Positions 1-58,460 are shown, counted from the stretch's first letter. The stretch is 64,000 nucleotides of DNA from Candidatus Micrarchaeota archaeon (GCA_021792095.1 JAJYVH010000001.1:445324-509323), one strand, 5' to 3'. The notes: generated by a model not told the origin, from the sequence alone. Numbers and translations: made by a program.

Positions 1-1092
1 AATAAGCGCAACGGCGAAAGCGGCGGCGATGTCCCCTTCGTCCACCGCGAGCTCACGCATCGCCGCAAGCACCGCATCCCCGCTGCTGTGCTTTAGCAGC
101 AGCGAGACTAGCGCTGCGAGCTCTATGCGGCCTGCGCCGCTGTTCAGCGCCAGCGCATCCCTGAGCGCCTCAGCTCCGCAGTTCTCCCTTATGCAGTTCT
201 CGAATTTCCGCCTCCCTATCTCTAGCATCATCGAGCCACCTGAAACAACACGAACAACGTCCTCCACCTCTATCCCGTGCACCTTCTCTATCATGCATAC
301 GCTCCTCCTGCCGGTGGCAAGCACCTGCACTGCCATGCAGCTGCCTACCGCAAGGTCCTGTATGGCTGCTACGTGCCTTTCCGCGAGCCCGTAATTGACC
401 GCCAGCCTGTCCAGGCCCCGCCTGTTCTGGAGCCTGAACAGGAACACAGTGGCGGCGTTGGAGAGCATCGCAAGATCTATGTCCTCCAGGAGCTGCGAGG
501 AGAACACTAGCCCGTAGCCGTATTTCCTGCCCTCGCGTAGCAGCGTCTCCAGCGAAGCGCTGCCCCTAAGGAGCTTCCAGGCCTCGTCCAGGAGCAGGAA
601 GACGCGCCCGCCAGTGTTGGAGGCCCGCATGCGCTCCACCACAGTGCCCATTATGCTCTCCGCAGTCCTCACCTTGTCCTGTTCTGATGTGATGCCTTTC
701 ATGCCAAAATAGAGCATGCCGTCTTTCCTTTCATCCATGAGTTCGTCTATGTTTTCCGGGTCGCTGCTCTCTTCTCCGGCGAACGAGGCGAACGCCGCGT
801 ACTCGCCAGTGAAATCAAGCACGAGCAGGGTGGCATCGCCTGCGGCCCAGAGCTTCAGCATGAGGTTGCGCATCAGGTACGTCTTGCCGCTGCCTGTCAC
901 GCCGCATATGAATATGTGCGGGTTCATGAGCAGGCCGAAGTCAATGAAATAAGGCGAATTGTGCATAGCGCCAACAAAAATGCAGCTCCGCGAGCGCGCC
1001 TCAATCTCTTCGGCGTGCTGGGACAGGGTATCTGGAAACTGAATCATGTCGACCGCGTGCTCCACGCTGCCTATGCGCCCGTTTGGAATCAT
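1..1092 (-). CDS. VirB4/TrbE-like secretion ATPase (FtsK-HerA superfamily); 3' end runs off the window
   Basis: Absent from the ORF track because no stop falls in the window. I checked every minus-strand codon from the ATG at 1092-1090 down to base 1 and found no stop. Translation is MIPNGRIGSVEH... with Walker A HIFICGVTGSGKTY, DFTGEY, Walker B RVFLLLDEAWKLL and REGRKYGYGLVFSSQ. This is the same motif set as the ATPase at 26524-28029. The start abuts the stop of the upstream gene at 1093. Confidence 0.75.
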   Translation of the reverse strand, partial: MIPNGRIGSVEHAVDMIQFPDTLSQHAEEIEARSRSCIFVGAMHNSPYFIDFGLLMNPHIFICGVTGSGKTYLMRNLMLKLWAAGDATLLVLDFTGEYAAFASFAGEESSDPENIDELMDERKDGMLYFGMKGITSEQDKVRTAESIMGTVVERMRASNTGGRVFLLLDEAWKLLRGSASLETLLREGRKYGYGLVFSSQLLEDIDLAMLSNAATVFLFRLQNRRGLDRLAVNYGLAERHVAAIQDLAVGSCMAVQVLATGRRSVCMIEKVHGIEVEDVVRVVSGGSMMLEIGRRKFENCIRENCGAEALRDALALNSGAGRIELAALVSLLLKHSSGDAVLAAMRELAVDEGDIAAAFAVALI

Positions 1093-1818
1093 TCAGACAC
1101 CGTTGGTCATTACCTCGTCGAACAGCCGCTCCCCTTTCAGTGTCTCGCACTCGAACCCGAGGGCTGACGAGAAGGCGCTGGAGAGCTTCTCCGCGTTCGA
1201 TGCCGATGTACGTGCGGCCTCGAAGCTGCTGCCTGCGGTGCAGAACGTCTTGAGCTTCAGTCTCATGGCCAGCATCTTCTGGCCGCGTATTCCGCGTATC
1301 TCGCTTTCTATAACACCAAGCTCGCGCCTGAGCACGTTCATCCTGTCGTACCTCTTCGCATCGCACCTCGAGATCTCTATCTCCTTCAGCCTTCTCTTCT
1401 CCTCCAGCCTGTCGAGGACCTTTCCCTGGTTTATGGCCTCCATCCCCAGGCTAAACTCGAACGGGAAGTCCGTGTTGCGCACAAGCGAACTCAGCAGCTC
1501 TCCGTTGCGTTCCGCGCCATTGCTTCTCACCGCTATGCACGAGACGGCGATGTACGCATTGCCGCTGGCCTTCACCATCGAGCGCAGGTCTTCGGACAGG
1601 CCATAGCCCATGCACACCTCTATTGCCTTGCCCTTCCGCAGCACCAGATTGTTGATTATGTGCCCCGAGTTCAGGTATGCCACTGAGCAGAGGAGCAGCA
1701 GCGCCTCCGCGGCAAGCAGGTAGGCGTTGCGCAGCAGGATTCCTGACACTAGGGTCGCTATGGCAGCGGCGTATACGGCATACGCGTAGCCCCTGTTTTG
1801 AAGCTCGATGTCAAGCAT
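1093..1818 (-). CDS. TM-anchored protein with cytosolic domain; paralog of 24810-25640 and 25641-26465 (candidate VirB3/VirB4 N-terminal-domain-like)
   Basis: 241-aa ORF with N-terminal hydrophobic helices (YAYAVYAAAIATLVSGILL, LLAAEALLLLCSVAYL). These are followed by a soluble domain with DFPFEFSL, comparable to GFPFRFSV and PVRFSAQL in the two proteins preceding the second ATPase. It occupies the same position, immediately upstream of the VirB4-like ATPase. Functional assignment is inference. Confidence 0.6.
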   Translation of the reverse strand: MLDIELQNRGYAYAVYAAAIATLVSGILLRNAYLLAAEALLLLCSVAYLNSGHIINNLVLRKGKAIEVCMGYGLSEDLRSMVKASGNAYIAVSCIAVRSNGAERNGELLSSLVRNTDFPFEFSLGMEAINQGKVLDRLEEKRRLKEIEISRCDAKRYDRMNVLRRELGVIESEIRGIRGQKMLAMRLKLKTFCTAGSSFEAARTSASNAEKLSSAFSSALGFECETLKGERLFDEVMTNGV

Positions 1819-1826
1819 GCATTCGC

Positions 1827-2828
1827 CTATATGATGCTCGTCCTCCCCAGGAAGGTGTCCGAGCCAAGCACCGCTGACAGTTCCCTGACTGATATGCCCG
1901 TGAGCATAAGGCTGAACGCGGGCAGTATGAACGTAGCTAGTATGAAGTACGACATTATGCCGAAGAGGTAGTTGACTAGGTTCGACAGCTGCTTGGAGAC
2001 AGCGCTGCCCACGCTCGCGAGCGCAGAGACTATGCTGCTGTTCCCAGAGCCCGTGCTCGCGTATGCGAGCAACGAGCCCTCCACGTTGTTGAAATCGAAG
2101 ACAAACTGTGCGCTTCCGTTTCCAGCTTCGGCCGAGGCGTAGTAGCTAAGCAGCGTGGCGTTCATTACGTACGAGAGCGGCAGGATAAGGTACAGGCCGA
2201 TCGTCAGCGCTATCAGGAACCCGCCGAGCTTGCGCACTGGATAAAAGGTCCTCAATACCAGGCCCAGCGGCAGCAGCAACGTCATGGAGCCCGCCGCCGC
2301 CACTGCGAGCACGGAAGCCTGCACCGTGACGCTCACCGCGGCTGCGCCAAGAACCTGCACGGTGCTCTGTATCTGCGATAGCAAGGGGCTGAGGAAAGTC
2401 TTGAAGATGCCTAGCACAGCGTAGGCGGCTATCAGGCCAGTGACCGCGACGGTGACTCCGCTCAGCACGGACGAATGGGATGCGCCAAGGTATTCGTACT
2501 GGCCCTGGCCCACAAGGTAGTCGTAGGCGAAGCATATGGCTGTGTTGCCAGCCATGAATCCGCTGCACGTCATCGTGGTGCCGTTGGCGAGCACCACCGA
2601 GTTGATGAATACTCCTATTATCCCGCCGCTCGCGAACAAGGCCACAAATCCGCCCACCAAAGCACCGTTTATCAGGGACTGCATGAGCTCGCTCCTTCCT
2701 ATGTCTTTTAGCTTCCTGTCGTTCAGCGCGTATCCTGTCCCGAGAAGGATGCCGCCTACGGATATCATTATGCCGACAAGCAGCACAGCAACGCCGAAGC
2801 CATACGCTCCGAGCAGTCCCGTAGGCAT
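1827..2828 (-). CDS. polytopic membrane protein, 7th member of the paralog family found at 17088-24743 (candidate VirB6/CedA-like)
   Basis: 333-aa multi-TM ORF. It has the shared N-terminal TM-basic loop (ALNDRKLKDIGRSE), the shared motif RTFYPVRKLGGFLIALTIGLYLILPL and the shared C-terminal tail (SAVLGSDTFLGRTSII). Confidence 0.7.
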   Translation of the reverse strand: MPTGLLGAYGFGVAVLLVGIMISVGGILLGTGYALNDRKLKDIGRSELMQSLINGALVGGFVALFASGGIIGVFINSVVLANGTTMTCSGFMAGNTAICFAYDYLVGQGQYEYLGASHSSVLSGVTVAVTGLIAAYAVLGIFKTFLSPLLSQIQSTVQVLGAAAVSVTVQASVLAVAAAGSMTLLLPLGLVLRTFYPVRKLGGFLIALTIGLYLILPLSYVMNATLLSYYASAEAGNGSAQFVFDFNNVEGSLLAYASTGSGNSSIVSALASVGSAVSKQLSNLVNYLFGIMSYFILATFILPAFSLMLTGISVRELSAVLGSDTFLGRTSII

Positions 2829-2831
2829 GGC

Positions 2832-3191
2832 CTACACCGTGGCGTTGGTAAGGTTGCCCAGGAGGCCCGTGGATGCGAGCGCAAGCCCGTTGGAGGCGAC
2901 GGAGAGCACTGCCACGATCACCGCCCCTATCAGCACGTCTATCGCAGTGCTATGGAAGTTTGCCCTCTTCGTTGCAGGGAACAGCTGCCCTATCGCGTAG
3001 AATATGCCCGCGACTATGAAGAGCACGGCGCTCAGTACGGGGCCTATGTGGGCCAGCAGGCTCTGCACGCCGTTGAGCGTGGTTATTATGCTTAACGACA
3101 GCGGGACGGCCTGCGCCTTGCCACCGAACAGCAGAGGCAGCCACGCTATCTTTGCGTATTTTTTGATCAGGGCCACAGTTTGTGTAATCAT
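2832..3191 (-). CDS. small two-TM membrane protein, TrbC/VirB2-like (CedA1/TedC-like) candidate pilin
   Basis: 119 aa with helix-loop-helix architecture: LNGVQSLLAHIGPVLSAVLFIVAGIFYAIGQLFP-ATKRANFHS-TAIDVLIGAVIVAVLSV. It aligns with the proteins at 11481 and 12243 (shared YAI..(F/L)P and I.G..I motifs). It is the first gene of the compact minus-strand module. Confidence 0.55.
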   Translation of the reverse strand: MITQTVALIKKYAKIAWLPLLFGGKAQAVPLSLSIITTLNGVQSLLAHIGPVLSAVLFIVAGIFYAIGQLFPATKRANFHSTAIDVLIGAVIVAVLSVASNGLALASTGLLGNLTNATV

Positions 3192-3220
3192 AGTATCATT
3201 CTTTTACTTAGATATATGTT

Positions 3221-3236
3221 GTTTACTTAAGTAAAC
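3221..3236. promoter_or_regulatory. perfect 16-nt palindrome GTTTACTTAAGTAAAC in AT-rich divergent promoter region
   Basis: Read directly. It lies 30-45 nt upstream of the minus-strand start at 3191, flanked by ATATAT/CATATAAAAA. It may be a TATA/BRE region, an operator, or both. Confidence 0.35.
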
Positions 3237-3455
3237 ATATAAAAAGGTTTCTGCCCCGTGCTTTTTGCCTGAATACGCGCCGCAGCGCCTGTGACGCGCC
3301 CGGGCCGGGGACTGGTGGAGGCGGTGCGCCGGACAGTTCCAGCGCTGGAAATGCGTTGTGGCGCTACCTCTCAGTGCCCTGCCGCCCTTGGGTGCCCCTA
3401 AGAAAAGCAATATATAGCTGCTCTGTGCATGCCTAACTTCACGAAGTGAGCGAGC

Positions 3456-11480: not shown

Positions 11481-12035
11481 GTGCCAAACGGAAACGTTAT
11501 AAAGCAGCGATTGAAGGGATTCAGCGATGGCGGTGTGATGCGCGCGACTGGCGAGAAAGCGATTCTTTTCATGGTTGTCCTGTTCTCTACGCTGGTCAGC
11601 GTAGGTGCGGTGCCTACAAGCTGCCTGTCAGGCGAATGCTCGACTTCCGTATCAACCTCCGTATCGTCCTCTACGCTGTCGAGCTCCAGCTCAACAACCA
11701 CCATACTCTCGGGCAGCTCCAGTTCTGGAGGGGCGGCTGCGCCATTGACATCGCTCCTTAGCTCTGAGCTCTGCGGCATCGTTAGCTCCATACAGACCAT
11801 AGTGGGCGTCCTTGCGCTGGCCCTGTTCCTTATAGGCGGTCTTATGTACGCCATAGCCCACTTCCTGCCCCCGAGCGTCGAATACAGGAAGAGCCTCATG
11901 GGCTGGGCCACGGCCATGATAACTGGCGGGGTGATAGGGCTGATTGTAGTGATAATAGCGCCAATGCTGGTAGGCATGTTCGCCGGGGCTGCGAGCACCG
12001 TGGGAGGCGGCGCGATAGGCGTAAGCTGCACGTAG
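11481..12035 (+). CDS. TrbC/VirB2-like two-TM small membrane protein with Ser/Thr-rich linker (candidate pilin, copy 1)
   Basis: Contains a signal-like segment (likely start ATG 11538: MRATGEKAILFMVVLFSTLVSVGA) and a low-complexity STSVSTSVSSSTLSSSSSTTT stretch. The core is LSSELCGIVSSIQTIVGVLALALFLIGGLMYAIAHFLPPSVEYRKSLMGWATAMITGGVIGLIVVIIAP. Confidence 0.55.
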   Translation: MPNGNVIKQRLKGFSDGGVMRATGEKAILFMVVLFSTLVSVGAVPTSCLSGECSTSVSTSVSSSTLSSSSSTTTILSGSSSSGGAAAPLTSLLSSELCGIVSSIQTIVGVLALALFLIGGLMYAIAHFLPPSVEYRKSLMGWATAMITGGVIGLIVVIIAPMLVGMFAGAASTVGGGAIGVSCT

Positions 12036-12242: not shown

Positions 12243-12632
12243 ATGGATAAGGTGGACATGATGCGTGCGATAAGCCCACGGCTCGTTCTTGCGTTGCTTA
12301 CTGTGTCGTCACTGCTTGTGTTTGTTAGCGGGCAGAGCACACTTACTACGCTGCTCTCGTCTGAGCTCTGCGGCATAGTGGACTCGATAAGGGCGATAGT
12401 GGGCGTCCTTGCGCTCGCCCTGTTCCTGATCGGCGGAGTGATGTACGCCATAGCCCACTTCCTGCCCCCTAGCGTGGAGTTCAGGAAGAGCCTCACCGGC
12501 TGGTCCACGGCCATGATAACTGGCGGCATAATAGGCCTCATAGTGGTTATAATAGCCCCGTCCGTAGTGCAGATGTTCACGAACGCAGCTAACTCGTTGA
12601 GCACCACCAGCATAAACCTCTACACCTGCTGA
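12243..12632 (+). CDS. TrbC/VirB2-like two-TM small membrane protein (candidate pilin, copy 2)
   Basis: 129 aa with a signal peptide, then LSSELCGIVDSIRAIVGVLALALFLIGGVMYAIAHFLPPSVEFRKSLTGWSTAMITGGIIGLIVVIIAP. It is near-identical to copy 1 over the core at both protein and DNA level. Confidence 0.55.
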   Translation: MDKVDMMRAISPRLVLALLTVSSLLVFVSGQSTLTTLLSSELCGIVDSIRAIVGVLALALFLIGGVMYAIAHFLPPSVEFRKSLTGWSTAMITGGIIGLIVVIIAPSVVQMFTNAANSLSTTSINLYTC

Positions 12633-12684: not shown

Positions 12685-14640
12685 TTGCTGTGCTGCATTC
12701 TCTTTCACACACCTGATTGTATGCGGCAAAGCGGCCTGCGCATTGGTTATTTTGAGTTTGCTGTAATCGCCATAGTGCTCGTCCTGTCCGTGTATGTTGC
12801 CGAGTTCCAAACCTTCTTTTCTAACGCCGTTTCGGCGCTGCTCCTGGCTGTTTTTGCATTCTTCTCTGTCTTTGTGTTCGTTCACGTGGTCTACTTCAGG
12901 GGAGCTGGCGCAAAGGCAGCCGCGCGCGCAAGGCTGGCGCAGCACCTGCTGCTGCTTTCATCGCTTGCATCCTTTCTGCTCATGTTTGTGTTTGCGGGTA
13001 CGCATTTTTGGGGCACGGTCAACACCACGCTTTCGTTTGCTACTGTAATCGGGAGTCTCTTTGTGCTCTTCCTGCCCCTGTTCATGTTTGTCTTCCTGGG
13101 CGCCAGCATCCTGAGGACAGGGAAAGGCAGCGCTGGCGATGCATCTGTCCTCTTCCTTGTGGCGTTCCTGATACTCGTCCTTTACTTCTCTTCCGGCTTG
13201 CTGCTTAAGTACTACACTGTGAACGACGAGGAGTTCCTCCAGCTCCATGCCGTGACCCTGACGCTCGAGGGCGGCAACCCGTATGCTGTTTCTTTTTCAA
13301 ACCTCCTTTTCACCAACGCAAGCACCATTGGCGTCTCGCTTACCAGCAATAACACGATAGTGGGGCGGATGGATTATCCTGCCCTCTATTTCCTCTCCTT
13401 CGTACCCTTCTACCTGATATCCAGCCCGACCCTGTACGACATGGGCCACGTGGACACCACCGTGGAGTCGACAGTGTTCCTGTTCATACTGCTGGCTGCG
13501 CTTGCATTTTCACTGAAGAGGGAAGAGCTGCTCAAGCCGAGACTGGTGCTCCTCGTGTTTGTGCTGCTCGCCGTGTTCATTACTGTGTCAATCACTACGT
13601 ATCTGATGCTCGCGCTTCTCGTGCTTGCCTACACGAGGATTGGCAACAAGTACGTGTGGGTGCTGCTCGGCCTGTGCGCCTCCATACAGGAGGAGCTCTG
13701 GATGCCCGTGATCCTGTTGCTCATCTATTCTTTGAACAACTACGGCATTAGGAAGGGGCTCTACGACATTGCTGGCACGCTTGCAGTGTTCCTGATGATA
13801 AATGCATACTTCATAGCTGCGGGCCCCGCTGCCTATTTCGGCGCTGTCCTCACCCCACTCAACGGTTTCTACCTGCCGAGCGGCATAGGGGCGGTGGGCT
13901 CGGCGCTGATGAGCTACTACCCCGTACTGATGCAGACCTACACGCAGCTATTCGACATAGCGACTGTAGCGCTCTTGCTTCTCTTCGCATACGTGAACAG
14001 GAAGGAGCTCGTGGGCCTTTTCAGTCTCATACCGCTTGTTTTCATGGTGCACGTCCTGCCTTCATATTATGTGATGTTCATTTTCCTCATCTTCTTCTCC
14101 TTATTCGCGGAGGGTGCCGCAGGCAAGCGGAAAGGCACGCTCAGCGGCGCGCTTAAAAGGCACAGACTGGCCTTTGCGCTCGCGATGCTGGTCATAGTGC
14201 TTGCTGCAGCATACGCCGTGTATGCGTCCAATGCATCTTACTCTTCCAACTTCGACGTGCGCCTGGTCAACCAGACGCTTGTTGTGAATCAGACTAGTGA
14301 AACTTCTTACTACTCGGCTACGCTTCTCTGCCATAACATTGCAAACACAACAGTGTATGCGTATGCCTTGGTCTATTACGGCAAGGGCACGTATCTGCTC
14401 GGATTCATCAACAAGAGCATAGTGACAAGCCCCACCGAAGCGCCTTCGTGCGGTTCGTACGAATGCAAGGTTAACGTGAACAAGATAGCACTGCATGGCG
14501 ACAGCGGCAGCTACAACCTGACCGCGACGCTGCCGTGGGCCAACGGGACCATGCCCGCAGATGGCGTCGTGATGGGCGTATACAACAACGAGTACGTGTA
14601 CCTCGGCCCGCCGGTGTACGGTCGCGCAGGCACAGGATAG
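12685..14640 (+). CDS. large polytopic membrane protein with C-terminal extracellular domain (GT-C-like glycosyltransferase candidate)
   Basis: 651 aa with more than 10 hydrophobic segments, then a soluble tail rich in N-x-S/T sequons. The likely start is ATG 12721. No specific catalytic motif was recognised. Confidence 0.4.
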   Translation: MLCCILFHTPDCMRQSGLRIGYFEFAVIAIVLVLSVYVAEFQTFFSNAVSALLLAVFAFFSVFVFVHVVYFRGAGAKAAARARLAQHLLLLSSLASFLLMFVFAGTHFWGTVNTTLSFATVIGSLFVLFLPLFMFVFLGASILRTGKGSAGDASVLFLVAFLILVLYFSSGLLLKYYTVNDEEFLQLHAVTLTLEGGNPYAVSFSNLLFTNASTIGVSLTSNNTIVGRMDYPALYFLSFVPFYLISSPTLYDMGHVDTTVESTVFLFILLAALAFSLKREELLKPRLVLLVFVLLAVFITVSITTYLMLALLVLAYTRIGNKYVWVLLGLCASIQEELWMPVILLLIYSLNNYGIRKGLYDIAGTLAVFLMINAYFIAAGPAAYFGAVLTPLNGFYLPSGIGAVGSALMSYYPVLMQTYTQLFDIATVALLLLFAYVNRKELVGLFSLIPLVFMVHVLPSYYVMFIFLIFFSLFAEGAAGKRKGTLSGALKRHRLAFALAMLVIVLAAAYAVYASNASYSSNFDVRLVNQTLVVNQTSETSYYSATLLCHNIANTTVYAYALVYYGKGTYLLGFINKSIVTSPTEAPSCGSYECKVNVNKIALHGDSGSYNLTATLPWANGTMPADGVVMGVYNNEYVYLGPPVYGRAGTG

Positions 14641-14677: not shown

Positions 14678-16255
14678 TCATCTGCCTGTTTTCTTGTATA
14701 TGTAGATGCCGCCTCCCTTGGCATACAGCGAGTAGTCGTGGCTGACGTAGCCGCTTACGTTGAACTGCGCGCCAGTCAGATCGCCGTAGTCCGAGCAGTC
14801 TTTGCAGAAAACAACGAACTCGGGGGTGGTGTTGAGCCAGTAGAAGGAGTAGAGCGTCTTGTTGAGTGGCAGGTACCACGAGTATCCCTCGTCAGGGGGC
14901 AGTTCCAAATAGTACATCCTGTAAAGGCGCAGGGCTGTGTCTGCGCCAGCCAGTACGGTGGCGTTTTGGGGCAGGACGGAAAGCACATCCGAAGCGTTCT
15001 GCCAGCTCGTATAGTTTGCGACAGCCTGGTGCTCAAGAGAGGCATATGTGTAGATCGCAGGCGAAAAGTAGAGCACAAACCCGACGAACATGGCAGTTAT
15101 AACCAGTACGAGCGGTATGGATGCCTTTGCAAGGAAGCCCATGGCTCCGCGCGCTATGCCGCTTCCGGATCCGCGGCGCTTGTTGTTTAGCAGGAGCTCG
15201 AGCCCCATTATGGCCGCTACCACGGATCCCTCCGTAGCGTAAGTGAGGTTTTGGGTGTCCTGGAAGAGGAAGTTGGTGTTGTGCACTACAAACACTTCAG
15301 CCAGCCATGGCGATATGAGTATCAGCAGCGGTATGATTGCGATGAGCGGGTAGGGGCCGAACCACAGCAGCACAACGACGAGCAGCAGGATAGCGAACTG
15401 CACATACGTCGTGCCGAAGCTGCTGGTGGCGTTGGGTATGCTCCCTGCCTGCTGCTGCAGCTCGCCGAATATGTGGAGTATGCTCGGCGTATTTATGTAC
15501 GAGCCCGACGCGTACGCAGCCAGCAGCGACTGCGACGCATATAGGTAAAACACAAGGAATGCAACGGTGATTGCGAAGGCGGCGGGGAGCATTTTCGCAG
15601 TGTTACGGGCCCATATCCTGCTGTCCCGCCCCGGTCTTTTCGAGTACAGCAGCCCGTATGCCGCTATGCCTATAAGCAGCGTCAGGCCCACTATGGCGTC
15701 AACATCGAAGACGCTGAGGAAAACGAAGTACGATAGCAGGAAATATCTGCTGCCCCTTATGAACAGGTAGAAGGAAAGCACGTAGAGGAACAGCATCGCC
15801 GCTTCCAGGTGGAACGCAAAGTAAGTGAGCCCTATTATGCCCGGGTTCAGAAGGAACGCGAACACGAGCGCTGCTGAGACCGATTCCTTGCCAGTGACAA
15901 ACTTTGCGGCAAAGAAGACGAGCACAGCGGTGGCCGCTATGAACAGGTCCTGGACCACCACCAAGGTAAGCGGAGAGTTGAAAGCGAAGAAGATAGGAAT
16001 CAGGAGCAGGTGGAACGGCGATATGTGCGTCATGAAGCTTAGGTACTCGAGCCCTGACACAGCGCCTGCGTGGTATATGTCTATGTTCAGCGCGCTTGCA
16101 GCGGTCCCAAGGTCTATGTACGACGTGCCGAATGTGCTGTACTGGTACACTGCGAAAGAAATCCAGAAAGCAAGATACGCCAATATGGATGCGGCAAGAA
16201 GCACGCGGTACCTGTTCAGACCCTGCTGCTCTTTCACCCTAACCCCTCGATGCAA
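14678..16255 (-). CDS. DUF2079-like polytopic membrane protein (GT-C-like candidate)
   Basis: 525 aa. The N-terminal pattern STFGTSYIDLGTAASALNI...THISPFHLLLIPIF resembles the DUF2079 opening (FDLG...HFSP). It has many TM segments and a C-terminal soluble domain. Confidence 0.45.
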   Translation of the reverse strand: MHRGVRVKEQQGLNRYRVLLAASILAYLAFWISFAVYQYSTFGTSYIDLGTAASALNIDIYHAGAVSGLEYLSFMTHISPFHLLLIPIFFAFNSPLTLVVVQDLFIAATAVLVFFAAKFVTGKESVSAALVFAFLLNPGIIGLTYFAFHLEAAMLFLYVLSFYLFIRGSRYFLLSYFVFLSVFDVDAIVGLTLLIGIAAYGLLYSKRPGRDSRIWARNTAKMLPAAFAITVAFLVFYLYASQSLLAAYASGSYINTPSILHIFGELQQQAGSIPNATSSFGTTYVQFAILLLVVVLLWFGPYPLIAIIPLLILISPWLAEVFVVHNTNFLFQDTQNLTYATEGSVVAAIMGLELLLNNKRRGSGSGIARGAMGFLAKASIPLVLVITAMFVGFVLYFSPAIYTYASLEHQAVANYTSWQNASDVLSVLPQNATVLAGADTALRLYRMYYLELPPDEGYSWYLPLNKTLYSFYWLNTTPEFVVFCKDCSDYGDLTGAQFNVSGYVSHDYSLYAKGGGIYIYKKTGR

Positions 16256-16312
16256 CTTAGGATATATGCGCTGGTAATTTAATCCTAGCGTGCGTTGTGC
16301 ATACGTGCCGGC

Positions 16313-17044
16313 ATGTCAACAATAGTCGAGGATGCGCTGGAGACATACAGGAGCAACATAAGGCTGGTCCTCCTGTTCTCCATACCTTTCGTGATAGCCT
16401 TCCTGATACCTCTGATAGCGCCGCTGCCAACCTACATATCAGGGGGCGGCATATTCCTTAGGAGCGCCAGCATATTCCTGAACCTCAACGTGCTCAGCCT
16501 CGCGGTGATAGTGGTATCCGTTTTCATCTCGCTGCTGTTCCTGAGCTTCGCCTACGTGGCCATATCGCTCATAGTGAAGGCGAAGCGCACGCTCTCCAGG
16601 ACGGCTGCAGGAGTGGCGCGCGAGCTCGAGAAATATACTGGCAGGGTGTTTGTGGTGCTGCTCCTCTACGCTTTCGTGCTCACACTGGTCGACGTGCTGA
16701 GCTACTTCGTCGGCCTGCAGGGGATAGCCACCCCGGTTGTGGGCTTCTTCCTCTTCGCGCTTGTATTCTACGCCCCGGCCTCCATAGTGATAAACAACAG
16801 CGGCGTTCTCGCGTCCATGAAGCAGAGCGCGCTGCTCGTCGCTAAGAGGCCGCAGTACTTCCTGCTGTGGATAGCGCTGCTTGTCCTCGTCGTGTCCATC
16901 CTGGACTTCCTGCTGATACACATAACAGGCACGCCTGTGTCCAGCTACCTGATGCTGGTCCTGAACTCGCTCTTCGTGGTGCCCTACTTCGTGATACTGC
17001 AGGCGGAGGCGTACATGAGGCGTTTCTCCATACTCGGGCGCTAG
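16313..17044 (+). CDS. multi-TM membrane protein, first gene of the secretion-like operon
   Basis: The ORF track starts at TTG 16295. However, a TAATTTAAT box at 16275-16283 fits ATG 16313 (MSTIVEDALETYRSN). About 6 hydrophobic segments; function unknown. Confidence 0.6.
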   Translation: MSTIVEDALETYRSNIRLVLLFSIPFVIAFLIPLIAPLPTYISGGGIFLRSASIFLNLNVLSLAVIVVSVFISLLFLSFAYVAISLIVKAKRTLSRTAAGVARELEKYTGRVFVVLLLYAFVLTLVDVLSYFVGLQGIATPVVGFFLFALVFYAPASIVINNSGVLASMKQSALLVAKRPQYFLLWIALLVLVVSILDFLLIHITGTPVSSYLMLVLNSLFVVPYFVILQAEAYMRRFSILGR

Positions 17045-17087: not shown

Positions 17088-18341
17088 ATGGAACTTAGGC
17101 AAGCTGTGTTGTCTGCACTTTCGCTGCTCTTTCTGGTAGCCGTTTCCACCGCGGCGGGCCCTACAGGCCCAGCTTCGCAGCTGATAACCGGCTGCGACAC
17201 ACTTACCCCATCGGCCGCGCTCGCCATACCCGGCGACATGATAAGCGTCGCGTTGCTGGCGCTGCTCGTGTCTTTCGACGTAGTGGCCCTTGGCTACATA
17301 CTGTCCAAAGTCTTCGCCAGCCAGCGCATCGCGGGCTGGGTCAACGGCGAGTTCTGGGAGATGGCGAAGACGGCGATACTGATAGTGGGCATCTTCTCCG
17401 CGCTTGCGATCCTGGGCAACATAGCGCTGCTGATTGCGCCTTCGTCGCTAAACCTGCAGCAGTCCCAGTCTGGCAGCTACTCGTCCAGCCTCGTGGCTCT
17501 TGCCGTAGGGGCGTGCAGCTACCTCGGCACCGCTTCTGTCACCACGACCGAAAGCCCCTCGAGCGCGAGGTTCGGGTACCCTACCATAACAACGTCAACC
17601 TCGGTGTCCAACGCCTACGTCTACGATTCGTTCTCCTACCTTATATCGTTCAGCAACGGACTGGGCGCCCTGAAGAATTCGAGCATCGGGCTGTGGATAC
17701 CCATACCGCCCCCGCCATTCTCTGCAGAGTCGCCCGTTGTGTTCACTTTCGGCTTCCACCTCAACCCCTACGAGAACAGGATGCTGGAGACCAACTTCAA
17801 GCTGGTGGGCCAGTATGCGTCCATGATAAACGACATGATGAACTACATAGCCGTGCCCACGCTCATGGCCATGGCCGTGCAGTACTACCTGCTGCCTCTA
17901 GTTTTCGTGCTGGGCCTGCTCGTCACTATACCGATAGGGCTCATACTGCGCGCGTTTCCCTTCGTGCGCGGCATAGGCGGCATGCTCGTGGCCCTGGGCA
18001 TAGGCATGTCGCTCATATACCCGGCGCTGCTCGTGCTGCTCAACTATCCTGTGACGCAGGCGCTGCAGTCGAGCTCCCTGCCCACCCTCTCCGGCTCTGC
18101 GTGCACCGGCATATTCTGCAGCTTCCTCGGGGGCATCACCGGTTCTGCTAACGTGCTTTCCAGCATAGACACTGTCTTCCCTGCGCTCAACGGACTGCTG
18201 AGCTTCAGCACCTACCTGCTGCTGCAGTTCATGCTCTTCATACTCGACCTTGCGATAGCGTTCCCGCTCGTGGACAACATAGCCAGGATGCTGGGAGGCT
18301 CCATAAGGCTCCAGCTCGGAGGCAAGCTGAAGATGAGGTGA
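17088..18341 (+). CDS. polytopic membrane protein, paralog family member (signal peptide; candidate VirB6/CedA-like)
   Basis: 417 aa with signal peptide MELRQAVLSALSLLFLVAVSTAAG. The N-block is SKVFASQRIAGWVNGEFWE and the core motif is RAFPFVRGIGGMLVALGIGMSLIYPALL. The tail is ARMLGGSIRLQLGGKLKMR. Confidence 0.7.
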   Translation: MELRQAVLSALSLLFLVAVSTAAGPTGPASQLITGCDTLTPSAALAIPGDMISVALLALLVSFDVVALGYILSKVFASQRIAGWVNGEFWEMAKTAILIVGIFSALAILGNIALLIAPSSLNLQQSQSGSYSSSLVALAVGACSYLGTASVTTTESPSSARFGYPTITTSTSVSNAYVYDSFSYLISFSNGLGALKNSSIGLWIPIPPPPFSAESPVVFTFGFHLNPYENRMLETNFKLVGQYASMINDMMNYIAVPTLMAMAVQYYLLPLVFVLGLLVTIPIGLILRAFPFVRGIGGMLVALGIGMSLIYPALLVLLNYPVTQALQSSSLPTLSGSACTGIFCSFLGGITGSANVLSSIDTVFPALNGLLSFSTYLLLQFMLFILDLAIAFPLVDNIARMLGGSIRLQLGGKLKMR

Positions 18342-18429
18342 TGCGACGCTAGACCCGGTACTGCTGCAGGCTGCCGCGCCGGCATGCGGCTTTGCGAGCA
18401 TAGACCAGTACGGCTGGATAAGCATCAAT

Positions 18430-19563
18430 GTGCTCGTCGTGCTGGCGAGCGTGATGATCGCGGCCGTAGTTTTCGTGTTCGCCAACTTCCTGCCCCCAGA
18501 GCGTATGCAGAGGCTCAGGGGCATATCCAGGTACGAGATGGTGGAGGCTATCGTGAGCATAGTGATAATAGGCGCGCTGCTCGGCTTCTCCTCCTTCGCG
18601 TGCAACGCAGGCGCGTCGCTGGTAGGCTCCAGCGGGTACACGTCGCTGTTCGGCGCCGACACGACGTACGTGAGCAACCTCCTGTTCCTGAACGGGGTGG
18701 GCATAGTTGAGAACGTTTACACGTCGTCGATAAGGCTCGTTATAGCGGCGAACATATTCAGCTATGTGGCCCCGCTGCTCGCCGACAAGTACCTGACTGC
18801 AAGCGCTGCTCTGACCAGCGCGTCGGGCAAGCAGTACGTAAGCATAAGCATGACGGTGAACCCTGCTTTCAACGACTACTTCTACAAGCTCTCAGGAGTG
18901 CTGACGGGCGCGATGTCGTCCCTCGTAATAATAGCGTACTCCATCCTGTTCCTGCTCTTCCTGCTTTTGCCGGTCATAAGCGCTGGCGCGCTCACACTGC
19001 TGGCTCCGCTGTCGCTCATAGTGCGTTCGCTCTCGTTCGCCGGCAAGAAGCTGCGCGAGGTGTCCAACCAGCTCCTGGCGATAGCCATAGGCTTCTACTT
19101 CGTGCTCCCCCTGATGCTGGCCCTCAACGCGTATGTGGGAGCCTGCCTGAACATAGGGCTGGGAGGCACTGCAGTCTCGTGCAGCTACCTGCCAAGCATC
19201 ACGCACTATCTAACCGCGTATACGCTGCCCGTGGCGCCGGCGTCCCTGTTCACGTCGAGCAATCCGCTCGACCTGAGCTCCAACGCGATGGTCAGCAACT
19301 TCGTTGCAGGCTTCGGGGGCACGGGCATACTCGGTAGCTTCTACGGCCCCGCTTTCTCCAACGTGGGCACGTTCTTCAGCACCATACTGTACTATCCCGG
19401 CGTGGCGCAGGGGTATGCGTTCCAGATATCCGGCTACGTGTTCCTTGGAGTAGTGATGATAGCCCTTGATTTCGCTGTGACGCTTGGTTTTGTAGTAGGG
19501 ATAGCCAAGGGGCTCAATGCGATGAGCGGCAACGAGCTCTTCGGGGCCGAGCCCATATTGTGA
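18430..19563 (+). CDS. polytopic membrane protein, paralog family member (divergent core motif; start uncertain)
   Basis: 377 aa from GTG 18430, with N-block PPERMQRLRGISRYEMVE and core RSLSFAGKKLREVSNQLLAIAIGFYFVLPL. The in-frame upstream sequence (18343-18429) encodes ATLDPVLLQAAAPACGFASIDQYGWISIN. This resembles the N-terminus of the 22522 paralog (GVLLQASVYNY..) but contains no in-frame ATG/GTG/TTG. Confidence 0.65.
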   Translation: MLVVLASVMIAAVVFVFANFLPPERMQRLRGISRYEMVEAIVSIVIIGALLGFSSFACNAGASLVGSSGYTSLFGADTTYVSNLLFLNGVGIVENVYTSSIRLVIAANIFSYVAPLLADKYLTASAALTSASGKQYVSISMTVNPAFNDYFYKLSGVLTGAMSSLVIIAYSILFLLFLLLPVISAGALTLLAPLSLIVRSLSFAGKKLREVSNQLLAIAIGFYFVLPLMLALNAYVGACLNIGLGGTAVSCSYLPSITHYLTAYTLPVAPASLFTSSNPLDLSSNAMVSNFVAGFGGTGILGSFYGPAFSNVGTFFSTILYYPGVAQGYAFQISGYVFLGVVMIALDFAVTLGFVVGIAKGLNAMSGNELFGAEPIL

Positions 19564-21416
19564 TCTCCATGAAGCCTATCGCGCTCGCAATCGCCGTCGT
19601 GCTCCTCTCCGGCATAGCGGGCACCGCCGGCGCGGCCTCAGGCGCCACTTTCATGACGCCGTATTCGGGCTTCGAGTCGTGGCTGCCCATAGTGTTCCTG
19701 GGCATACTGATAAGCTTCATGATAGTCGCGCTGCACTACATGCTCGGGGCTGTGCTGCAGAACAACAGGGTGAAGGCAAGCGCCGTTGGCGAGCTGGGCC
19801 AGGTGATAGGGGCGGTGGTGATAGCTGTCATAGTGATTGGCATACTGTACTTCGTGGGCACAAGCGAGTTCTCATTCGTCTCATTCGTGTCCCCTGGCAG
19901 CGTCTACTCGCTCTGCGGGCAGATCGGCAATTCCAAGTTGGATTTCCTCTCCGGCGCCCCATCGAACACGATATGCGGCTACATCGATTCGCTGGATGCG
20001 GGCAGCACAGACATAACGGAAAGGCTGGACTACGGCCTGTTCGCGAGCTACGCCATACTCGCCAACCTAACAAACCAGGACGCGAACAACCTCAACTCCA
20101 TATATATCTTCGAGGGCTGGATAGGTTTCCTCTACAAATTCACATCCGTTTTCGGGATCTGCTCCCCCGGGGAAACATGCTTCCCTCCATTCGTGCCCAG
20201 GACGATAAGCCTTACTGTATCGTACCAGCCGCTTGCCGGCTATCAGGCCCTGGAGAGCGTGGCCAGGCCGCTGGAGGCCGAGGCCAACCTGACCTTCTAC
20301 CTGCTGTTCATGCAGATGGTCGTGATACTCATACTGCTCTTCGCGTGGCCCTACCTGCTGGCCGCCGGAATGGTGCTGAAGTCTACGTTCTTCGCTCGGC
20401 GGCTAGGCGGCCTGCTCATGGCCATGGCGCTCGCTGCCGTGCTAATCTTTCCACTCATGTACCTGCTGGAGTACTCGGCGTTCTCGAACCTCAACCTCGG
20501 CCCGATAGGCGCGACGAACCTGCCCAATGTGCCGGTGTACGAGCAGCTCCCCGGGACCAGCGGCAACGTCATCATATACGGGTCGACCTCCACAGGCGGC
20601 TACGTGCCGTCGTACCTGGCGCCTTCTTCCAGCTGCCCCAGCGTCAGCGGGGGCATAAAGAATCCGCAGGAGCTGGGGCCAAGCTACGTCTATGAGTCGG
20701 AGTGCGGCAACGCAAACACAGCGAGCAAGGGCTGCACGTACAGCAGCATCTCGGGGGCTGCCTCGGTCTCGCCGCTCTGCCCGCAGGTCGTGTTCCAGGC
20801 TTCGCCGTCCTCGGCCCCACAGTCCTGCACGGTAGGCGAGGCGGGCTGCACATTCAGCGGATACGTGCCCTATACGCAGTCCCCAGGCGCAGGCTGTGCG
20901 CCAGGCGACTATGTATACGAGACATCGTGCGGCACCCCCACGATCCAGGGCTCTACGGTGCCAAGCGGCGTTGCGCTGTGTTCGGCTACACCGCCGACCG
21001 ACGAGCTCTGCGTATCGCCGCTGAGCTCGAACATCAACTTCTTCGTGCTGCCGAACCTGGACCAGGCGCTTACCTACTACTCGTGCGAGCCCACGCCCCT
21101 GATGGGATACGAGGCCGCCTTCGCGGTCTACTACCTGATCCCCGGATTCGGGATAGTAACTGGGCTGCTGAGCGGCGCGTTCGGCTTCGTGGGCCAGCTG
21201 CCCGTGACTCCGCTCAGTTTCGGCGGCGCCGGAGCGTGCAATCCGAGCAACGCCATACACTCTGTGCTCATGCTCACCAACGTATACGGCATAGTGTTCG
21301 TGGGCGGGGTGCTGCTGCCCCTGCTCAACATACTTATAGCCCTGTCAGCTGTTTCTGGGTTCGCTGTGCTCTTCGGAGGTGACACGGACATACTTGGCCT
21401 CTCTAGGTTGATATGA
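19560..21416 (+). CDS. polytopic membrane protein, paralog family member with large Cys-rich extracellular insert
   Basis: 618 aa. GTG 19560 overlaps the upstream stop (GTGA); the alternative ATG 19569 gives MKPIALAIAVVLLSGIAGTAGA. The N-block is LQNNRVKASAVGELGQ and the core is KSTFFARRLGGLLMAMALAAVLIFPL. The insert carries repeated YVYE(S/T)xCG and many Cys. The tail is FGGDTDILGLSRLI. Confidence 0.7.
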   Translation: MISMKPIALAIAVVLLSGIAGTAGAASGATFMTPYSGFESWLPIVFLGILISFMIVALHYMLGAVLQNNRVKASAVGELGQVIGAVVIAVIVIGILYFVGTSEFSFVSFVSPGSVYSLCGQIGNSKLDFLSGAPSNTICGYIDSLDAGSTDITERLDYGLFASYAILANLTNQDANNLNSIYIFEGWIGFLYKFTSVFGICSPGETCFPPFVPRTISLTVSYQPLAGYQALESVARPLEAEANLTFYLLFMQMVVILILLFAWPYLLAAGMVLKSTFFARRLGGLLMAMALAAVLIFPLMYLLEYSAFSNLNLGPIGATNLPNVPVYEQLPGTSGNVIIYGSTSTGGYVPSYLAPSSSCPSVSGGIKNPQELGPSYVYESECGNANTASKGCTYSSISGAASVSPLCPQVVFQASPSSAPQSCTVGEAGCTFSGYVPYTQSPGAGCAPGDYVYETSCGTPTIQGSTVPSGVALCSATPPTDELCVSPLSSNINFFVLPNLDQALTYYSCEPTPLMGYEAAFAVYYLIPGFGIVTGLLSGAFGFVGQLPVTPLSFGGAGACNPSNAIHSVLMLTNVYGIVFVGGVLLPLLNILIALSAVSGFAVLFGGDTDILGLSRLI

Positions 21417-22525
21417 TGCGCGCCGCTATCGTGTTGTTGCTCCTTGCCTTCCTGCTTACCTCCGGCATGGCGAGCGCGGGGCCTTCGGTGGAGGGCAACA
21501 TCTGCTCCTCACTCTTTAGCAGTTCCAGCCCCATGCCGCTGCACGGTGCAGCCGGCTACTTGGGCACAGTGGCCGGCATAGCCCTCCTGGTGGTGCTTGT
21601 GGTATTGATTGTGCTCGGCGTAGCCTACGCGGTAGGCTACGCCTTCGGAATAAACTCACTCCTCAATTTCGTAAAGACCGAATCGGTGGAGAGCTTTTTC
21701 AACATACTGCTGATTGCGCTTGTCGCGTTCGGCATAGGCTTCGCCGGGCCCGCCATGCAGTTCCTTGCCGGAATAGGCGGCATAGGCCTTGAGTCGGCAG
21801 GCGCCGCAGCGCCAAACATAGCCAGCGCCCAGGGACTCTACACGAGCCTTTGCACTCACTACGTTACCCACGGGATAGGGACGGTCATTGATAACGAGAT
21901 AACGCTGAGCATAACCTACATATTCACCGAAGTGCTGCAATCTACTACTGTGCTGCTCATGCCGAACGGCTTCGGGTTCTCGTGGTCGCCATTCGCAGGC
22001 GCGACGATACAGCTCAACGTAATAAACACGCAGATGCAGGTGTACACCTTCTTCGCCGCTATCTTCGTGGCTATAGCTATACTGCTGGCGCTGATATACT
22101 TCCTCTTCCCTATTTTCCTGTACGCTGGCGTGCTCCTCAGGGCGTTCCCGTGGACCAGGGCTGCTGGAGGCTCGCTCATAGCGCTCTTCATCGCTTTCTA
22201 CATAGTGTTCCCCGCGCTTCTCTACCCGTTCTCCACCTACCTCACCGTTGCAGTTAACGCCGCCTCCGGCTCGATACCGCCGCTGAGCTCCCTGTCGAGC
22301 CTCTCGCTGCCTGTCTCGGTGCTCGCGTCCTCGATCGACGGGGCCGCCGTCGCTGACGAGGTGATGGGCGTGGGCGGGTTCGCGCAGAACCTGGCTTACA
22401 TGACGCTGCAGATAATAGGCATATTCATCGCATTCCTGGTATCCTTCGACCTGCTCGAGGGATTGGGAGACCTCCTCGGCTCGCCGTCGCTCAGCGCTGG
22501 CAAGCTATTCAGCAAGGTGATATGA
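21413..22525 (+). CDS. polytopic membrane protein, paralog family member
   Basis: 370 aa with an ATGA overlap on the upstream gene and signal peptide MMRAAIVLLLLAFLLTSGMASA. The core is RAFPWTRAAGGSLIALFIAFYIVFPALL and the tail is LGDLLGSPSLSAGKLFSKVI. Confidence 0.7.
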   Translation: MMRAAIVLLLLAFLLTSGMASAGPSVEGNICSSLFSSSSPMPLHGAAGYLGTVAGIALLVVLVVLIVLGVAYAVGYAFGINSLLNFVKTESVESFFNILLIALVAFGIGFAGPAMQFLAGIGGIGLESAGAAAPNIASAQGLYTSLCTHYVTHGIGTVIDNEITLSITYIFTEVLQSTTVLLMPNGFGFSWSPFAGATIQLNVINTQMQVYTFFAAIFVAIAILLALIYFLFPIFLYAGVLLRAFPWTRAAGGSLIALFIAFYIVFPALLYPFSTYLTVAVNAASGSIPPLSSLSSLSLPVSVLASSIDGAAVADEVMGVGGFAQNLAYMTLQIIGIFIAFLVSFDLLEGLGDLLGSPSLSAGKLFSKVI

Positions 22526-23577
22526 TGATGGGCGTACTACTCCAGGCAAGCGTATACAACTACATAATGTCGCCCTACCTGGTGTGGCTCCCGGTGGCGT
22601 CGGCAGCGGCGATCGCCATAATAGGCATACTTGCCGTTGCCTATATGCTGACCTCCTTCATGGGCGACAGGCGCATGGCCACGTGGGTGCGCGTAAAGAT
22701 ATACGAGGTGGTCTTCAGCTTCATACTCATAGGCGCCTTCGCCTTCGTTGTAGTGCTGCTAACCTCGGTCAACTTTGTCCAGCTCTTCGGACCTGTCTAC
22801 GGGCCGGGGCAGGACGGGCTCGTGCCTATGGCGTGCTCCGCCCAGGGCAGCCCGCCAATACCGTCCAACGACCTCTTCACGCTGGCCGTATGCGATATGC
22901 ATCTGTTCGTGCAGCAGGTGACCAATATAGGCGCAGCCGTGTACTGGATCGGCGCCCAGTTCGCCTTCGTGCCCAGCGTGAGCGTAGTGGTCACTCCGGT
23001 GCCCGGAGTGAGCAGCCTTGGCGTGTCTACGAGCTTCACGCTCATACCCCGCGCCGACGAGGTCTTCCTGGCCTATGTCATAGACCTCATATACATCACG
23101 CTCACGGTGGCTCAGCTGCAGGTGCTGCTGCTCGCTGCATCGCTGTTCATATTCTCGCTCTTCATGGCGATAGGCCTTATAGCAAGGCTTTTCGTCATAA
23201 CCAGGAGTTTCGGCGGGGCGCTCATAGCGTTCGCGGTGGGGCTGGGCATAGTATACCCGCTGCTCGTGGCCATAACCTATGGGTATGTTAACGTGGGCAT
23301 GCAGAACACGGCTGGCGTTCTTATCTGGCTCGAGGGATCCGGGGCGCTTGGCGGTATACTTGGGCTCCTTGTGCTGGTCGGCGTGCCGACGTTGGTGGGG
23401 AGCGCTTTCGCAGGCGTCACCGGCGCAATGCTCCTGACCTATCTAGGACTTGCGATAATGGGCCTTGTGTTCGTGCCCATACTAACGTTTGTATTGGTTG
23501 ACGTGTTCATAATAGACTTCTCAAGCGCAGTGGGCGAGAAGATGGACTTCCTGTCCCTGCTCACCAATGTTATATGA
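22522..23577 (+). CDS. polytopic membrane protein, paralog family member
   Basis: 351 aa with an ATGA overlap. The N-block is FMGDRRMATWVRVKIYE, the core is RLFVITRSFGGALIAFAVGLGIVYPLL and the tail is AVGEKMDFLSLLTNVI. Confidence 0.7.
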   Translation: MMMGVLLQASVYNYIMSPYLVWLPVASAAAIAIIGILAVAYMLTSFMGDRRMATWVRVKIYEVVFSFILIGAFAFVVVLLTSVNFVQLFGPVYGPGQDGLVPMACSAQGSPPIPSNDLFTLAVCDMHLFVQQVTNIGAAVYWIGAQFAFVPSVSVVVTPVPGVSSLGVSTSFTLIPRADEVFLAYVIDLIYITLTVAQLQVLLLAASLFIFSLFMAIGLIARLFVITRSFGGALIAFAVGLGIVYPLLVAITYGYVNVGMQNTAGVLIWLEGSGALGGILGLLVLVGVPTLVGSAFAGVTGAMLLTYLGLAIMGLVFVPILTFVLVDVFIIDFSSAVGEKMDFLSLLTNVI

Positions 23578-47082: not shown

Positions 47083-47086
47083 GCGA

Positions 47087-48601: not shown

Positions 48602-48603
48602 GC

Positions 48604-49197: not shown

Positions 49198-49213
49198 GCT
49201 TTGGGATGGTGAT

Positions 49214-58367: not shown

Positions 58368-58460
58368 TCATAACCATCATAAAATCGATTTTACGTTATC
58401 TATGTATAACATTAAATATATAAATACGCGCATCCGAAGTTACGGTGCGTCCCAGCGCCC

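Follow-up and report, generated by a model that had tools for sequence, protein, structure and literature searches.

At its left edge, a 64,000-nucleotide stretch of the metagenome-assembled genome of a Candidatus Micrarchaeota archaeon (DPANN; GCA_021792095.1, JAJYVH010000001.1:445324-509323; this whole stretch is referred to below as the window) carries a small cluster of minus-strand genes, g1 to g4, which we consider likely to be a stripped-down, chromosomal and vertically inherited derivative of a type IV secretion system (T4SS) that resembles the archaeal systems Ced and Ted, and to represent one of two ancient paralogous loci of the Micrarchaeota, the other being a larger operon on the plus strand of the same window. 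The four genes are co-directional and tightly packed, with spacers of 3, 8 and 0 nt, exactly as an earlier note on this DNA had described them: g1 (3191-2832, 119 aa), g2 (2828-1827, 333 aa) and g3 (1818-1093, 241 aa) are taken from the list of open reading frames (ORFs), and g4 (1092-1) was translated directly and comprises 364 codons without a stop inside the window, its start codon directly abutting the stop of g3.

An exact match to g3 exists in 19 contigs, the longest of which, a 203-kb contig of the metagenome-assembled genome GCA_027363655.1, was used to follow the locus beyond the window. On this contig g4 is an intact ORF of 372 aa, with 8 codons and the stop falling outside the window, and the possibility raised in the earlier note that the ATPase at the left edge is truncated or pseudogenised does not apply. 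The ATPase gene is followed on the same strand, in overlapping or abutting frames, by g5 (229 aa), g6 (183 aa) and g7 (62 aa), of which g5 is soluble, g6 has one N-terminal hydrophobic segment and g7 is hydrophobic; in one contig an additional 92-aa membrane ORF is called. By hhalign the family profiles of g5 to g7 match none of the VirB proteins of Agrobacterium tumefaciens, nor VirD4. The small locus is intact, comprises about seven genes in this genome and continues past the left edge of the window.

The first gene, g1, encodes a VirB2/TrbC-type pilin-like protein. In Pfam it matches T4SS_pilin (E 3.6e-4) and TrbC (E 6.6e-3), both under the curated cut-offs (for PF04956/PF18895, 21.0 bits against 26.6 and 17.1 against 27.9). 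The earlier label "VirB2-like" is borne out by matches to these families in half of the orthologs: out of 30 orthologs examined, T4SS_pilin is matched by 15 (best E 4.1e-7) and TrbC/VirB2 by 12 (best E 4.2e-6), and several of 556 g1 homologs carry a precomputed PF04956 or PF18895 assignment. The protein has a signal-peptide-like N-terminus ending in GKAQA and two hydrophobic helices (49-67 and 81-99, from hydropathy) joined by the short basic loop TKRANFH, for which an alignment of 30 orthologs gives the consensus P-x-x-K-R-A-x-F-H; an AxA-type site ends the leader across the same alignment. This layout of a small protein with a leader, two helices and a basic loop is the one expected of a VirB2/TrbC-type pilin and is established for T- and F-pilins, CedA1 and TedC (PMC9905601). 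No other gene of the cluster is as well conserved as g1, whose 30 aligned orthologs show 42-71% identity. At its C-terminus (2832-2860) N-x-T/S sequons are kept in nearly all orthologs (consensus LLxNxTxN), and this conservation suggests that the C-terminus may be exposed and N-glycosylated on an assembled filament. A relation between g1 and the N-terminus of g2, of the kind described between CedA1 and CedA (PMC9905601), was not detected, the best alignment falling on the first g2 hairpin with a probability of at most 1%.

The third and fourth genes point to VirB4. In the AlphaFold2 (AF2) model of g3 (predicted local distance difference test, pLDDT, 77) two N-terminal transmembrane helices are combined with a soluble alpha/beta domain, and a Foldseek search against the Protein Data Bank (PDB) places TrwK/VirB4 of R388 on all ranks from 1 to 13 (E 4e-4 to 2e-2, probability 0.92-1.0, about 150 aligned columns), the next-ranked matches being unrelated and weak. 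The designation of g3 as "VirB4N-like" in the earlier note agrees with this fold. No match was found for g3 in Pfam. Its family accounts for no more than 207 clusters in a set of 1.84 billion representatives, in which the distant relatives have no informative taxon names; the best 150 family matches listed are 70-317 aa long, too short to include an ATPase domain. Because g3 has no P-loop, its VirB4-like part is assigned to the N-terminal domain of VirB4, and g3 would then be one half of a divided VirB4, the N-terminal one, anchored in the membrane. The g4 protein, in turn, is a predicted P-loop ATPase of the VirB4/CedB/HerA class with a Walker A motif GVTGSGKT and a Walker B motif FLLLDEAW, and matches DUF87, AAA_10 and TrwB_AAD_bind in Pfam. 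Its family aligns with residues 429-693 of VirB4 of Agrobacterium tumefaciens (hhalign, 73% probability, E 3e-5, 216 columns), which constitute the C-terminal ATPase domain, so that g4 possesses a RecA-like ATPase domain with both Walker motifs homologous to this part of VirB4. An N-terminal VirB4 domain on the same chain, which would amount to about 800 aa in total, is absent from g4, which begins about 60 residues before Walker A. Since g4 aligns with the C-terminal domain of VirB4 without having an N-terminal domain of its own, and since the modelled fold of g3 is VirB4-like, VirB4 appears to be split here into a membrane-anchored N-terminal protein (g3) and a motor (g4).

Between the pilin-like gene and this putative split VirB4 lies g2, a polytopic membrane protein with at least six hydrophobic segments and an all-helical AF2 model (pLDDT 72.5). 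It thus shows the polytopic topology with at least five transmembrane helices that is expected of a VirB6/TrbL/CedA/TedA-type protein, and in all loci its gene has the expected position beside the pilin and VirB4 genes. Position and topology make g2 a candidate VirB6/CedA/TedA analogue, which we offer as a lead. Neither Pfam nor NCBIfam contains a match for g2, and an attempt to gain a broader VirB6 profile by tblastn with VirB6 on plasmids yielded almost only rhizobial sequences, too narrow a set.

Several observations weigh against a T4SS ancestry of the cluster. No component of the window's small locus reaches a curated family cut-off in Pfam or NCBIfam, and the locus has no relaxase and no clear coupling protein. 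Comparison by hhalign with single A. tumefaciens proteins gave no match of the g1, g2 and g3 family profiles to VirB2, VirB6, VirB3 or VirB4; the g1 profile, run against PDB sequences, retrieved chance membrane-protein matches and no solved pilin; the top PDB fold match of g2, full-length TrwI/VirB6 (8rt9_F), is not significant (E 0.26, TM-score 0.33/0.37); and the Foldseek output is silent on which part of VirB4 aligns with g3. Furthermore, PADLOC models of HerA score 58-78 bits on the ATPases, about equal to CedB, CedD and VirB4. In NCBIfam the families matched best by g4 include CedB and VirB4, and its 501-aa paralog also matches CedD, which speaks for the T4SS assignment; antiphage HerA is likewise among the best matches of g4, and every one of its scores lies far under the curated cut-off (CedB 42.6 bits against 700; CedD 31.5 against 600; TIGR00929, E 5e-9, 34.9 against 643), and the same holds for the 501-aa ATPase of the large operon (CedD 68.5 against 600; CedB 64 against 700). 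By the NCBIfam equivalog cut-offs neither protein is an ortholog of CedB or CedD. Sequence scores alone do not assign the ATPases to either HerA or VirB4/Ced. It is conceivable, albeit improbable, that the cluster is unrelated to T4SS and encodes a lineage-specific membrane complex with a HerA/FtsK-class ATPase, engaged for example in the export or anchoring of envelope proteins or in membrane remodelling, with its resemblances to T4SS arising by convergence or chance. The equal strength of the HerA matches would be in line with this explanation, as would the insignificant fold match of g2 and the fact that g2, g5, g6 and g7 have no family assignment. It has to be set against three independent lines of evidence in adjacent genes, namely the pilin families matched by many g1 orthologs, the fold of g3 with VirB4 as all 13 top matches, and the similarity of g4 to the C-terminal domain of VirB4, in a gene order that fits modules of the virB2, virB3/virB4, virB6 type. 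A function as a defence system was considered and rejected, as the PADLOC matches are confined to the ATPases and to the level of the HerA superfamily.

The cluster is conserved in about a hundred species of Micrarchaeota, which are tiny symbiotic archaea. We scanned one genome per species with an ortholog-only alignment (a broader alignment with more diverse sequences did not serve) and confirmed 102 g2 loci, 80 of which were fetched; the titles of these 80 listed loci are nearly all Micrarchaeota. ORFs were called in 83 related loci and assigned with iterated hidden Markov models for each family, loci being counted only where enough sequence was present. On this basis g1 is present in 78/78, g3 in 82/82 and g4 in 80/80 assessable loci, and g1 to g4 form an invariant set across genomes. 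The doubt expressed earlier, that the four genes might not be co-conserved elsewhere, is thus dispelled by at least 80 loci, and the proposal that the VirB2-like gene belongs to the module is upheld by its adjacency in all 78 loci with upstream sequence. The claim of the earlier note that the locus defines a core of four genes needs an addition: the four are indeed invariant, but three more genes follow here, and g5 and g6 are present in 68/76 and 63/76 assessable loci, respectively. Eight loci have neither g5 nor g6 beside the ATPase, and six of these possess a short ATPase of 283-287 aa; in L040, the one of these loci that was read through, no further gene of the cluster comes after g4. Nearly all homologs of g1, g2 and g3 are in records named Micrarchaeota, Micrarchaeia or Micrarchaeaceae; all homologs are annotated as hypothetical, and a few appear to be mis-binned.

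Downstream of the small cluster, 41 of the fetched loci encode a second P-loop ATPase, soluble and about 750 aa long (e.g. L007 12000-14264; L008 11477-13735), with a Walker A motif GLPGSGKT and weak matches to CedD, DUF87 and Zot. It is absent from the small locus of this genome and from the window; it could be an analogue of a coupling protein or of CedD.

The large operon on the plus strand holds paralogs of the genes of the small locus in the same order, as the earlier note had observed, i.e. pilin, membrane protein(s), g3-like protein and ATPase. Two pilin-like paralogs (11481-12035, 184 aa; 12243-12632, 129 aa) precede the first membrane-protein gene by about 4.5 kb. They share 75% identity, and their BLASTP matches to the pilins of the small locus range from E 4e-6 to 5e-3; T4SS_pilin matches them weakly (E 0.0024 and 0.031), and they repeat the layout of signal, helix, loop and helix seen in g1. 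Six tandem paralogs of g2 follow (17088-24743; 417, 377, 618, 370, 351 and 389 aa), so that g2 is the single small-locus counterpart of six membrane proteins, in agreement with the one membrane paralog noted before. BLASTP of g2 against each of the six gives E 3e-6 to 3e-3, and the seven proteins align over their full length with 18-26% identity; all of them contain GLILRxFxxxRxxGGxLIAxAIGxYxVxPLL and end in a tail of the form LG...G..I. The six-paralog arrangement recurs in another Micrarchaeota genome (L011).

Next in the operon are two g3 paralogs (24810-25640, 276 aa; 25641-26465, 274 aa). In the pairwise comparison of the three VirB4N-like proteins that the earlier note had proposed, g3 is significantly similar only to the 274-aa paralog (28% over 114 aa, E 5e-5), with E 0.085 between g3 and the 276-aa paralog and E 12 between the two large-operon proteins; the g3-family profile unites all three types and recovers the 276-aa family at E 1e-85. 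The proposed comparison of the two ATPases gives a firmer result: g4 and the 501-aa ATPase (26524-28029) are 24% identical over 258 aa and 30% over a further 73 aa (E 1e-15; phmmer 8.7e-24), and they have in common the motifs GxTGxGK[TS], hhhLDEAWK and REGRKY...SQ, which substantiates the shared motif set recognised earlier. The gene at 28732-29457, which comes after this ATPase and encodes a protein with a coiled-coil middle and a winged-helix-like C-terminus (weak PCI, MarR_2 and FeoC matches at residues 198-239), is a paralog of g5: the g5 family aligns with this protein and its L011 ortholog by hhalign with 96.5% probability (E 8.5e-10, 192 columns). At least five families, not four, are hence common to both loci.

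The two ATPases differ by a helical insert of about 110 aa that separates the Walker A motif from Walker B and is present in the large-operon ATPase and absent from the 372-aa g4. The small-locus ATPases fall into three length classes of about 283, 345-430 and 440-465 aa; the long class has the insert, and the class of about 283 aa is also without the C-terminal helical domain, which coincides with the absence of g5 and g6. We read g4 as a reduced form that has lost an insert which its paralog and the long ATPases of other lineages retain, and for this reason the view of the two loci as a natural comparison of a minimal with an expanded version holds only in part: the small locus is a smaller paralogous copy, but its "minimal" state is partly a secondary reduction. 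Both locus types are found together on one 853-kb chromosome, and the large operon is syntenic in L011 from the DUF2079 gene to Top6B. Paralogs are 18-26% identical, in contrast to at least 33% for g2 and at least 29% for g4 between the most distant orthologs sampled, from which we infer that the duplication predates the sampled radiation. Of the two loci the small one is the better conserved and the simpler.

Directly after the 501-aa ATPase gene, a 98-aa ORF (28049-28345, plus strand), for which an L011 ortholog exists, seems on visual inspection to encode the C-terminal domain of the ATPases as a separate protein (LRRIGVDDVSIASAF compared with LRSFGLQDSIITRVF). The operon is closed by a 776-aa protein (29625-31955, plus strand; L011 ortholog 781 aa) without a family match, in which a signal or anchor sequence is followed by a long ectodomain rich in N-x-S/T sequons and a single transmembrane helix leads to about 230 aa of cytoplasmic tail; a kinship with the second ATPase of about 750 aa was considered, and the comparison shows that the two are unrelated. 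Between the pilin paralogs and the VirB6-like genes lie a 651-aa polytopic protein without a family match (12685-14640, plus strand), a 525-aa membrane protein (14678-16255, minus strand) whose gene matches the DUF2079 gene of L011 in place and size, its position being likewise conserved there, and a 249-aa membrane protein (16295-17044, plus strand) found at the same position in L011 and also in L010.

The setting of the small locus is that of a chromosome. Its flanks consist of housekeeping genes, with the gene for ribosomal protein L10e next to g1 and unrelated housekeeping genes after g7, and in a related locus (L009) the cluster is flanked by EF-1alpha and S10; between the small locus and the large-locus pilins lie genes for Dph2, translin, a DNA glycosylase, an aminoacyl-tRNA synthetase, TBP, L21e, Rpb4 and MoxR. 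The attributes of a conjugative plasmid or an integrative and conjugative element, i.e. a relaxase, a coupling protein, integrase or replication genes and a variable location, are not seen here: no such gene is called in the flanks, and the cluster is syntenic across at least 80 genomes. One might nevertheless suspect that the cluster was left behind by an integrated conjugative element or a plasmid and sits in the contig by chance, as such elements typically carry VirB4-class ATPases and 233 of the 495 plasmid records matched by the 501-aa ATPase are conjugative. All of these plasmid matches are bacterial, with identities of at most 28%, and the cluster is syntenic among housekeeping neighbours in at least 80 species-level genomes; no integrase, relaxase or replication gene is called in the flanks of the small cluster, its composition is like that of the rest of the contig, and in PHROGs the cluster proteins give no phage-family match except those of the ATPase superfamily. 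We regard such a remnant as extremely improbable; synteny and housekeeping flanks rule against an integrated element, and a prophage or inovirus was likewise rejected, the PHROGs matches being restricted to the ATPases.

Upstream of g1 an AT-rich leader (3192-3245, minus strand), in a genome of about 58% GC, contains the TATA-like sequences TTTTTATAT (3245-3237) and CATATATC (3218-3211), read from the sequence, and is a probable candidate for the operon promoter. Beyond the leader the L10e gene is transcribed divergently, and a GC-rich intergenic stretch of about 160 nt (3250-3410) lies between g1 and the L10e gene. An RNA gene was considered for this stretch and discarded, with neither an Rfam nor a tRNA match and with fold z-scores of -0.56 and 0.09.

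If the small locus is a Ced/Ted-like T4SS derivative, its products might work together as follows. The g1 protein would be exported, its signal peptide cleaved at KAQA, and would reside in the membrane as a two-helix hairpin until it polymerises into a thin hollow pilus of the VirB2 type with the glycosylatable C-terminus facing outward. The g2 protein would form the membrane platform or channel, in the role of VirB6, CedA and TedA. Together, g3 and g4 would act as one VirB4, in which g3 supplies the anchor (the role of VirB3) and a VirB4-type N-terminal domain, and g4 serves as a hexameric motor that extracts pilin and powers translocation; the abutting or overlapping reading frames of the two genes suggest that their translation is coupled. 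The soluble g5, with its winged-helix-like C-terminus, and the small membrane proteins g6 and g7 may be lineage-specific accessory subunits. By analogy with Ced and Ted the cargo is most likely DNA that is moved between contacting cells, and the transfer partner could be another Micrarchaeon or a Thermoplasmatales host.

The same T4SS-like hardware could alternatively serve the interaction with a host, as a conduit or attachment pilus by which the genome-reduced Micrarchaeon would take up macromolecules from its Thermoplasmatales host or inject them into it, and as an archaeal counterpart of the T4SS of Patescibacteria, an explanation to which we give clearly less credence than to a Ced/Ted-like derivative but which is the main alternative. 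The two paralogous loci are retained in chromosomes that are small as far as sampled (contigs of 0.85 and 1.05 Mb), the VirB6-like gene is expanded to six copies as in Rickettsiales (PMC7648143), and the T4SS of Patescibacteria is chromosomal, relaxase-less, equipped with VirB2-like pilins and essential for epibiosis (PMC12102498, PMC12857230). In addition, a locus for a type IV pilus and the genes of three giant surface proteins with lectin domains lie in the same window. On the other hand, the small cluster has no effector, adhesin or host-targeting domain, its closest characterised archaeal relatives, Ced and Ted, transfer DNA among conspecifics, and the results do not discriminate among possible cargoes. 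A more far-reaching version, which we put forward tentatively, is that two anciently duplicated, vertically inherited T4SS-derived machines with a split VirB4 occur phylum-wide and together constitute the conduit of the symbiosis between DPANN archaea and their hosts, by which DNA or other macromolecules would be taken from Thermoplasmatales in a counterpart of the epibiosis T4SS of Patescibacteria.

The type IV pilus locus (47063-50569, plus strand) is an archaeal assembly pair, in which the gene of a T2SSE-type ATPase at 47063-48601 (Pfam E 3e-34) is accompanied by that of a T2SSF-type platform protein at 49214-50569 (E 1.5e-14). The Ced system of Sulfolobales needs such a pilus (Ups) to bring cells into contact, and because of this dependence the occurrence of type IV pilus and T4SS-like loci in one 64-kb window may be meaningful. 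The three large proteins (51726-61838, minus strand; 886, 726 and 1125 aa) have Laminin_G_3/ConA-like lectin domains (E 4e-31 to 1e-59) and are probably surface adhesins; one of them also has a beta-propeller, an AAA_14/DUF4143 ATPase gene lies among them, and the region has a GC content of 50-52% against about 58%.

Among characterised systems, Ced of Sulfolobales (CedA1 pilin, CedA/CedE, CedB/CedD) and Ted of Thermoproteales (TedC pilin, TedA, TedB) are likewise archaeal, chromosomal and relaxase-less, with VirB2-, VirB6- and VirB4-like parts (PMC9905601). The Micrarchaeota cluster resembles both in its predicted VirB2-like two-helix pilin, its polytopic membrane protein and its VirB4-class ATPase associated with an anchored VirB4-type N-terminal domain; as in TedC, the signal peptide of g1 is apparently cleavable, and the duplication of the channel protein and the ATPase in Ced has a parallel in the two loci of the Micrarchaeota. 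In CedB and CedD a single polypeptide comprises a transmembrane segment, an N-terminal domain like that of VirB4 and the ATPase domain, and CedE is a paralog of CedA (PMC11868833). In contrast, the putative anchor and N-terminal domain (g3) are separate from the motor (g4) in Micrarchaeota, and they are unfused in the best 150 representatives of the g3 family. Unlike Ced and Ted, the Micrarchaeota cluster is also accompanied by the conserved g5, g6 and g7 and often by the second ATPase of about 750 aa, and has a sister locus with six VirB6-like and two g3-like paralogs; orthology with Ced is not detectable at the bit scores given above, such as 42.6 for CedB and 68.5 for CedD, and the lineage belongs to DPANN rather than to Thermoproteota.

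With the inner-membrane complex of the bacterial VirB/Trw system (R388; 7O41, 8RT9, 8RTB) the cluster shares the fold of g3, the alignment of g4 and the Pfam families matched by the g1 family, and TrwI/VirB6 is the top, though not significant, PDB match of g2. It differs in the absence of VirB1, B5, B7, B8, B9, B10, B11, VirD4 and a relaxase, in the apparent split of VirB4, in the single-membrane archaeal envelope and in showing no detectable similarity to VirB2, B3 and B6 of A. tumefaciens. The T4SS of Patescibacteria (candidate phyla radiation, CPR; PMC12102498) is likewise found throughout an ultrasmall, genome-reduced and host-dependent lineage, and is chromosomal and relaxase-less with VirB2-like pilins. 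It belongs to the bacterial MPF-FATA class, however, with a full-length VirB4, VirB3/PrgI and VirB8-like parts and often a coupling protein, and we treat the likeness as an analogy of lifestyle and not as a demonstrated homology. The nanohaloarchaeal SPEARE giant proteins (PMC10266531), finally, come from another DPANN lineage, and their VirB4/TraG-like ATPase domains have been proposed to act in host interaction; these domains are part of giant surface proteins with Ig repeats and with an adjacent full VirB4, and no cluster with a pilin, a VirB6-like protein or a split VirB4 has been described for them.

We found no paper that describes these loci in Micrarchaeota, in a search of the literature that was incomplete, so that an earlier description is possible. 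In the literature searched, the only archaeal T4SS-like systems are Ced, Ted, a few conjugative plasmids and the VirB4 domains of nanohaloarchaeal giant proteins, and a T4SS review of late 2025 does not mention DPANN. The Micrarchaeota cluster would extend domesticated conjugation machinery of the Ced/Ted type to DPANN archaea and would provide a natural split of VirB4 into two functional halves. A comparison of one with six VirB6-like paralogs is offered inside a single genome, and the small locus, being the better conserved and simpler of the two, is the better entry for structural work. The cluster also names concrete candidates for the transcriptomes, proteomes and tomograms of existing Micrarchaeota co-cultures, and the question of how material passes physically between DPANN archaea and their hosts becomes accessible to experiment.

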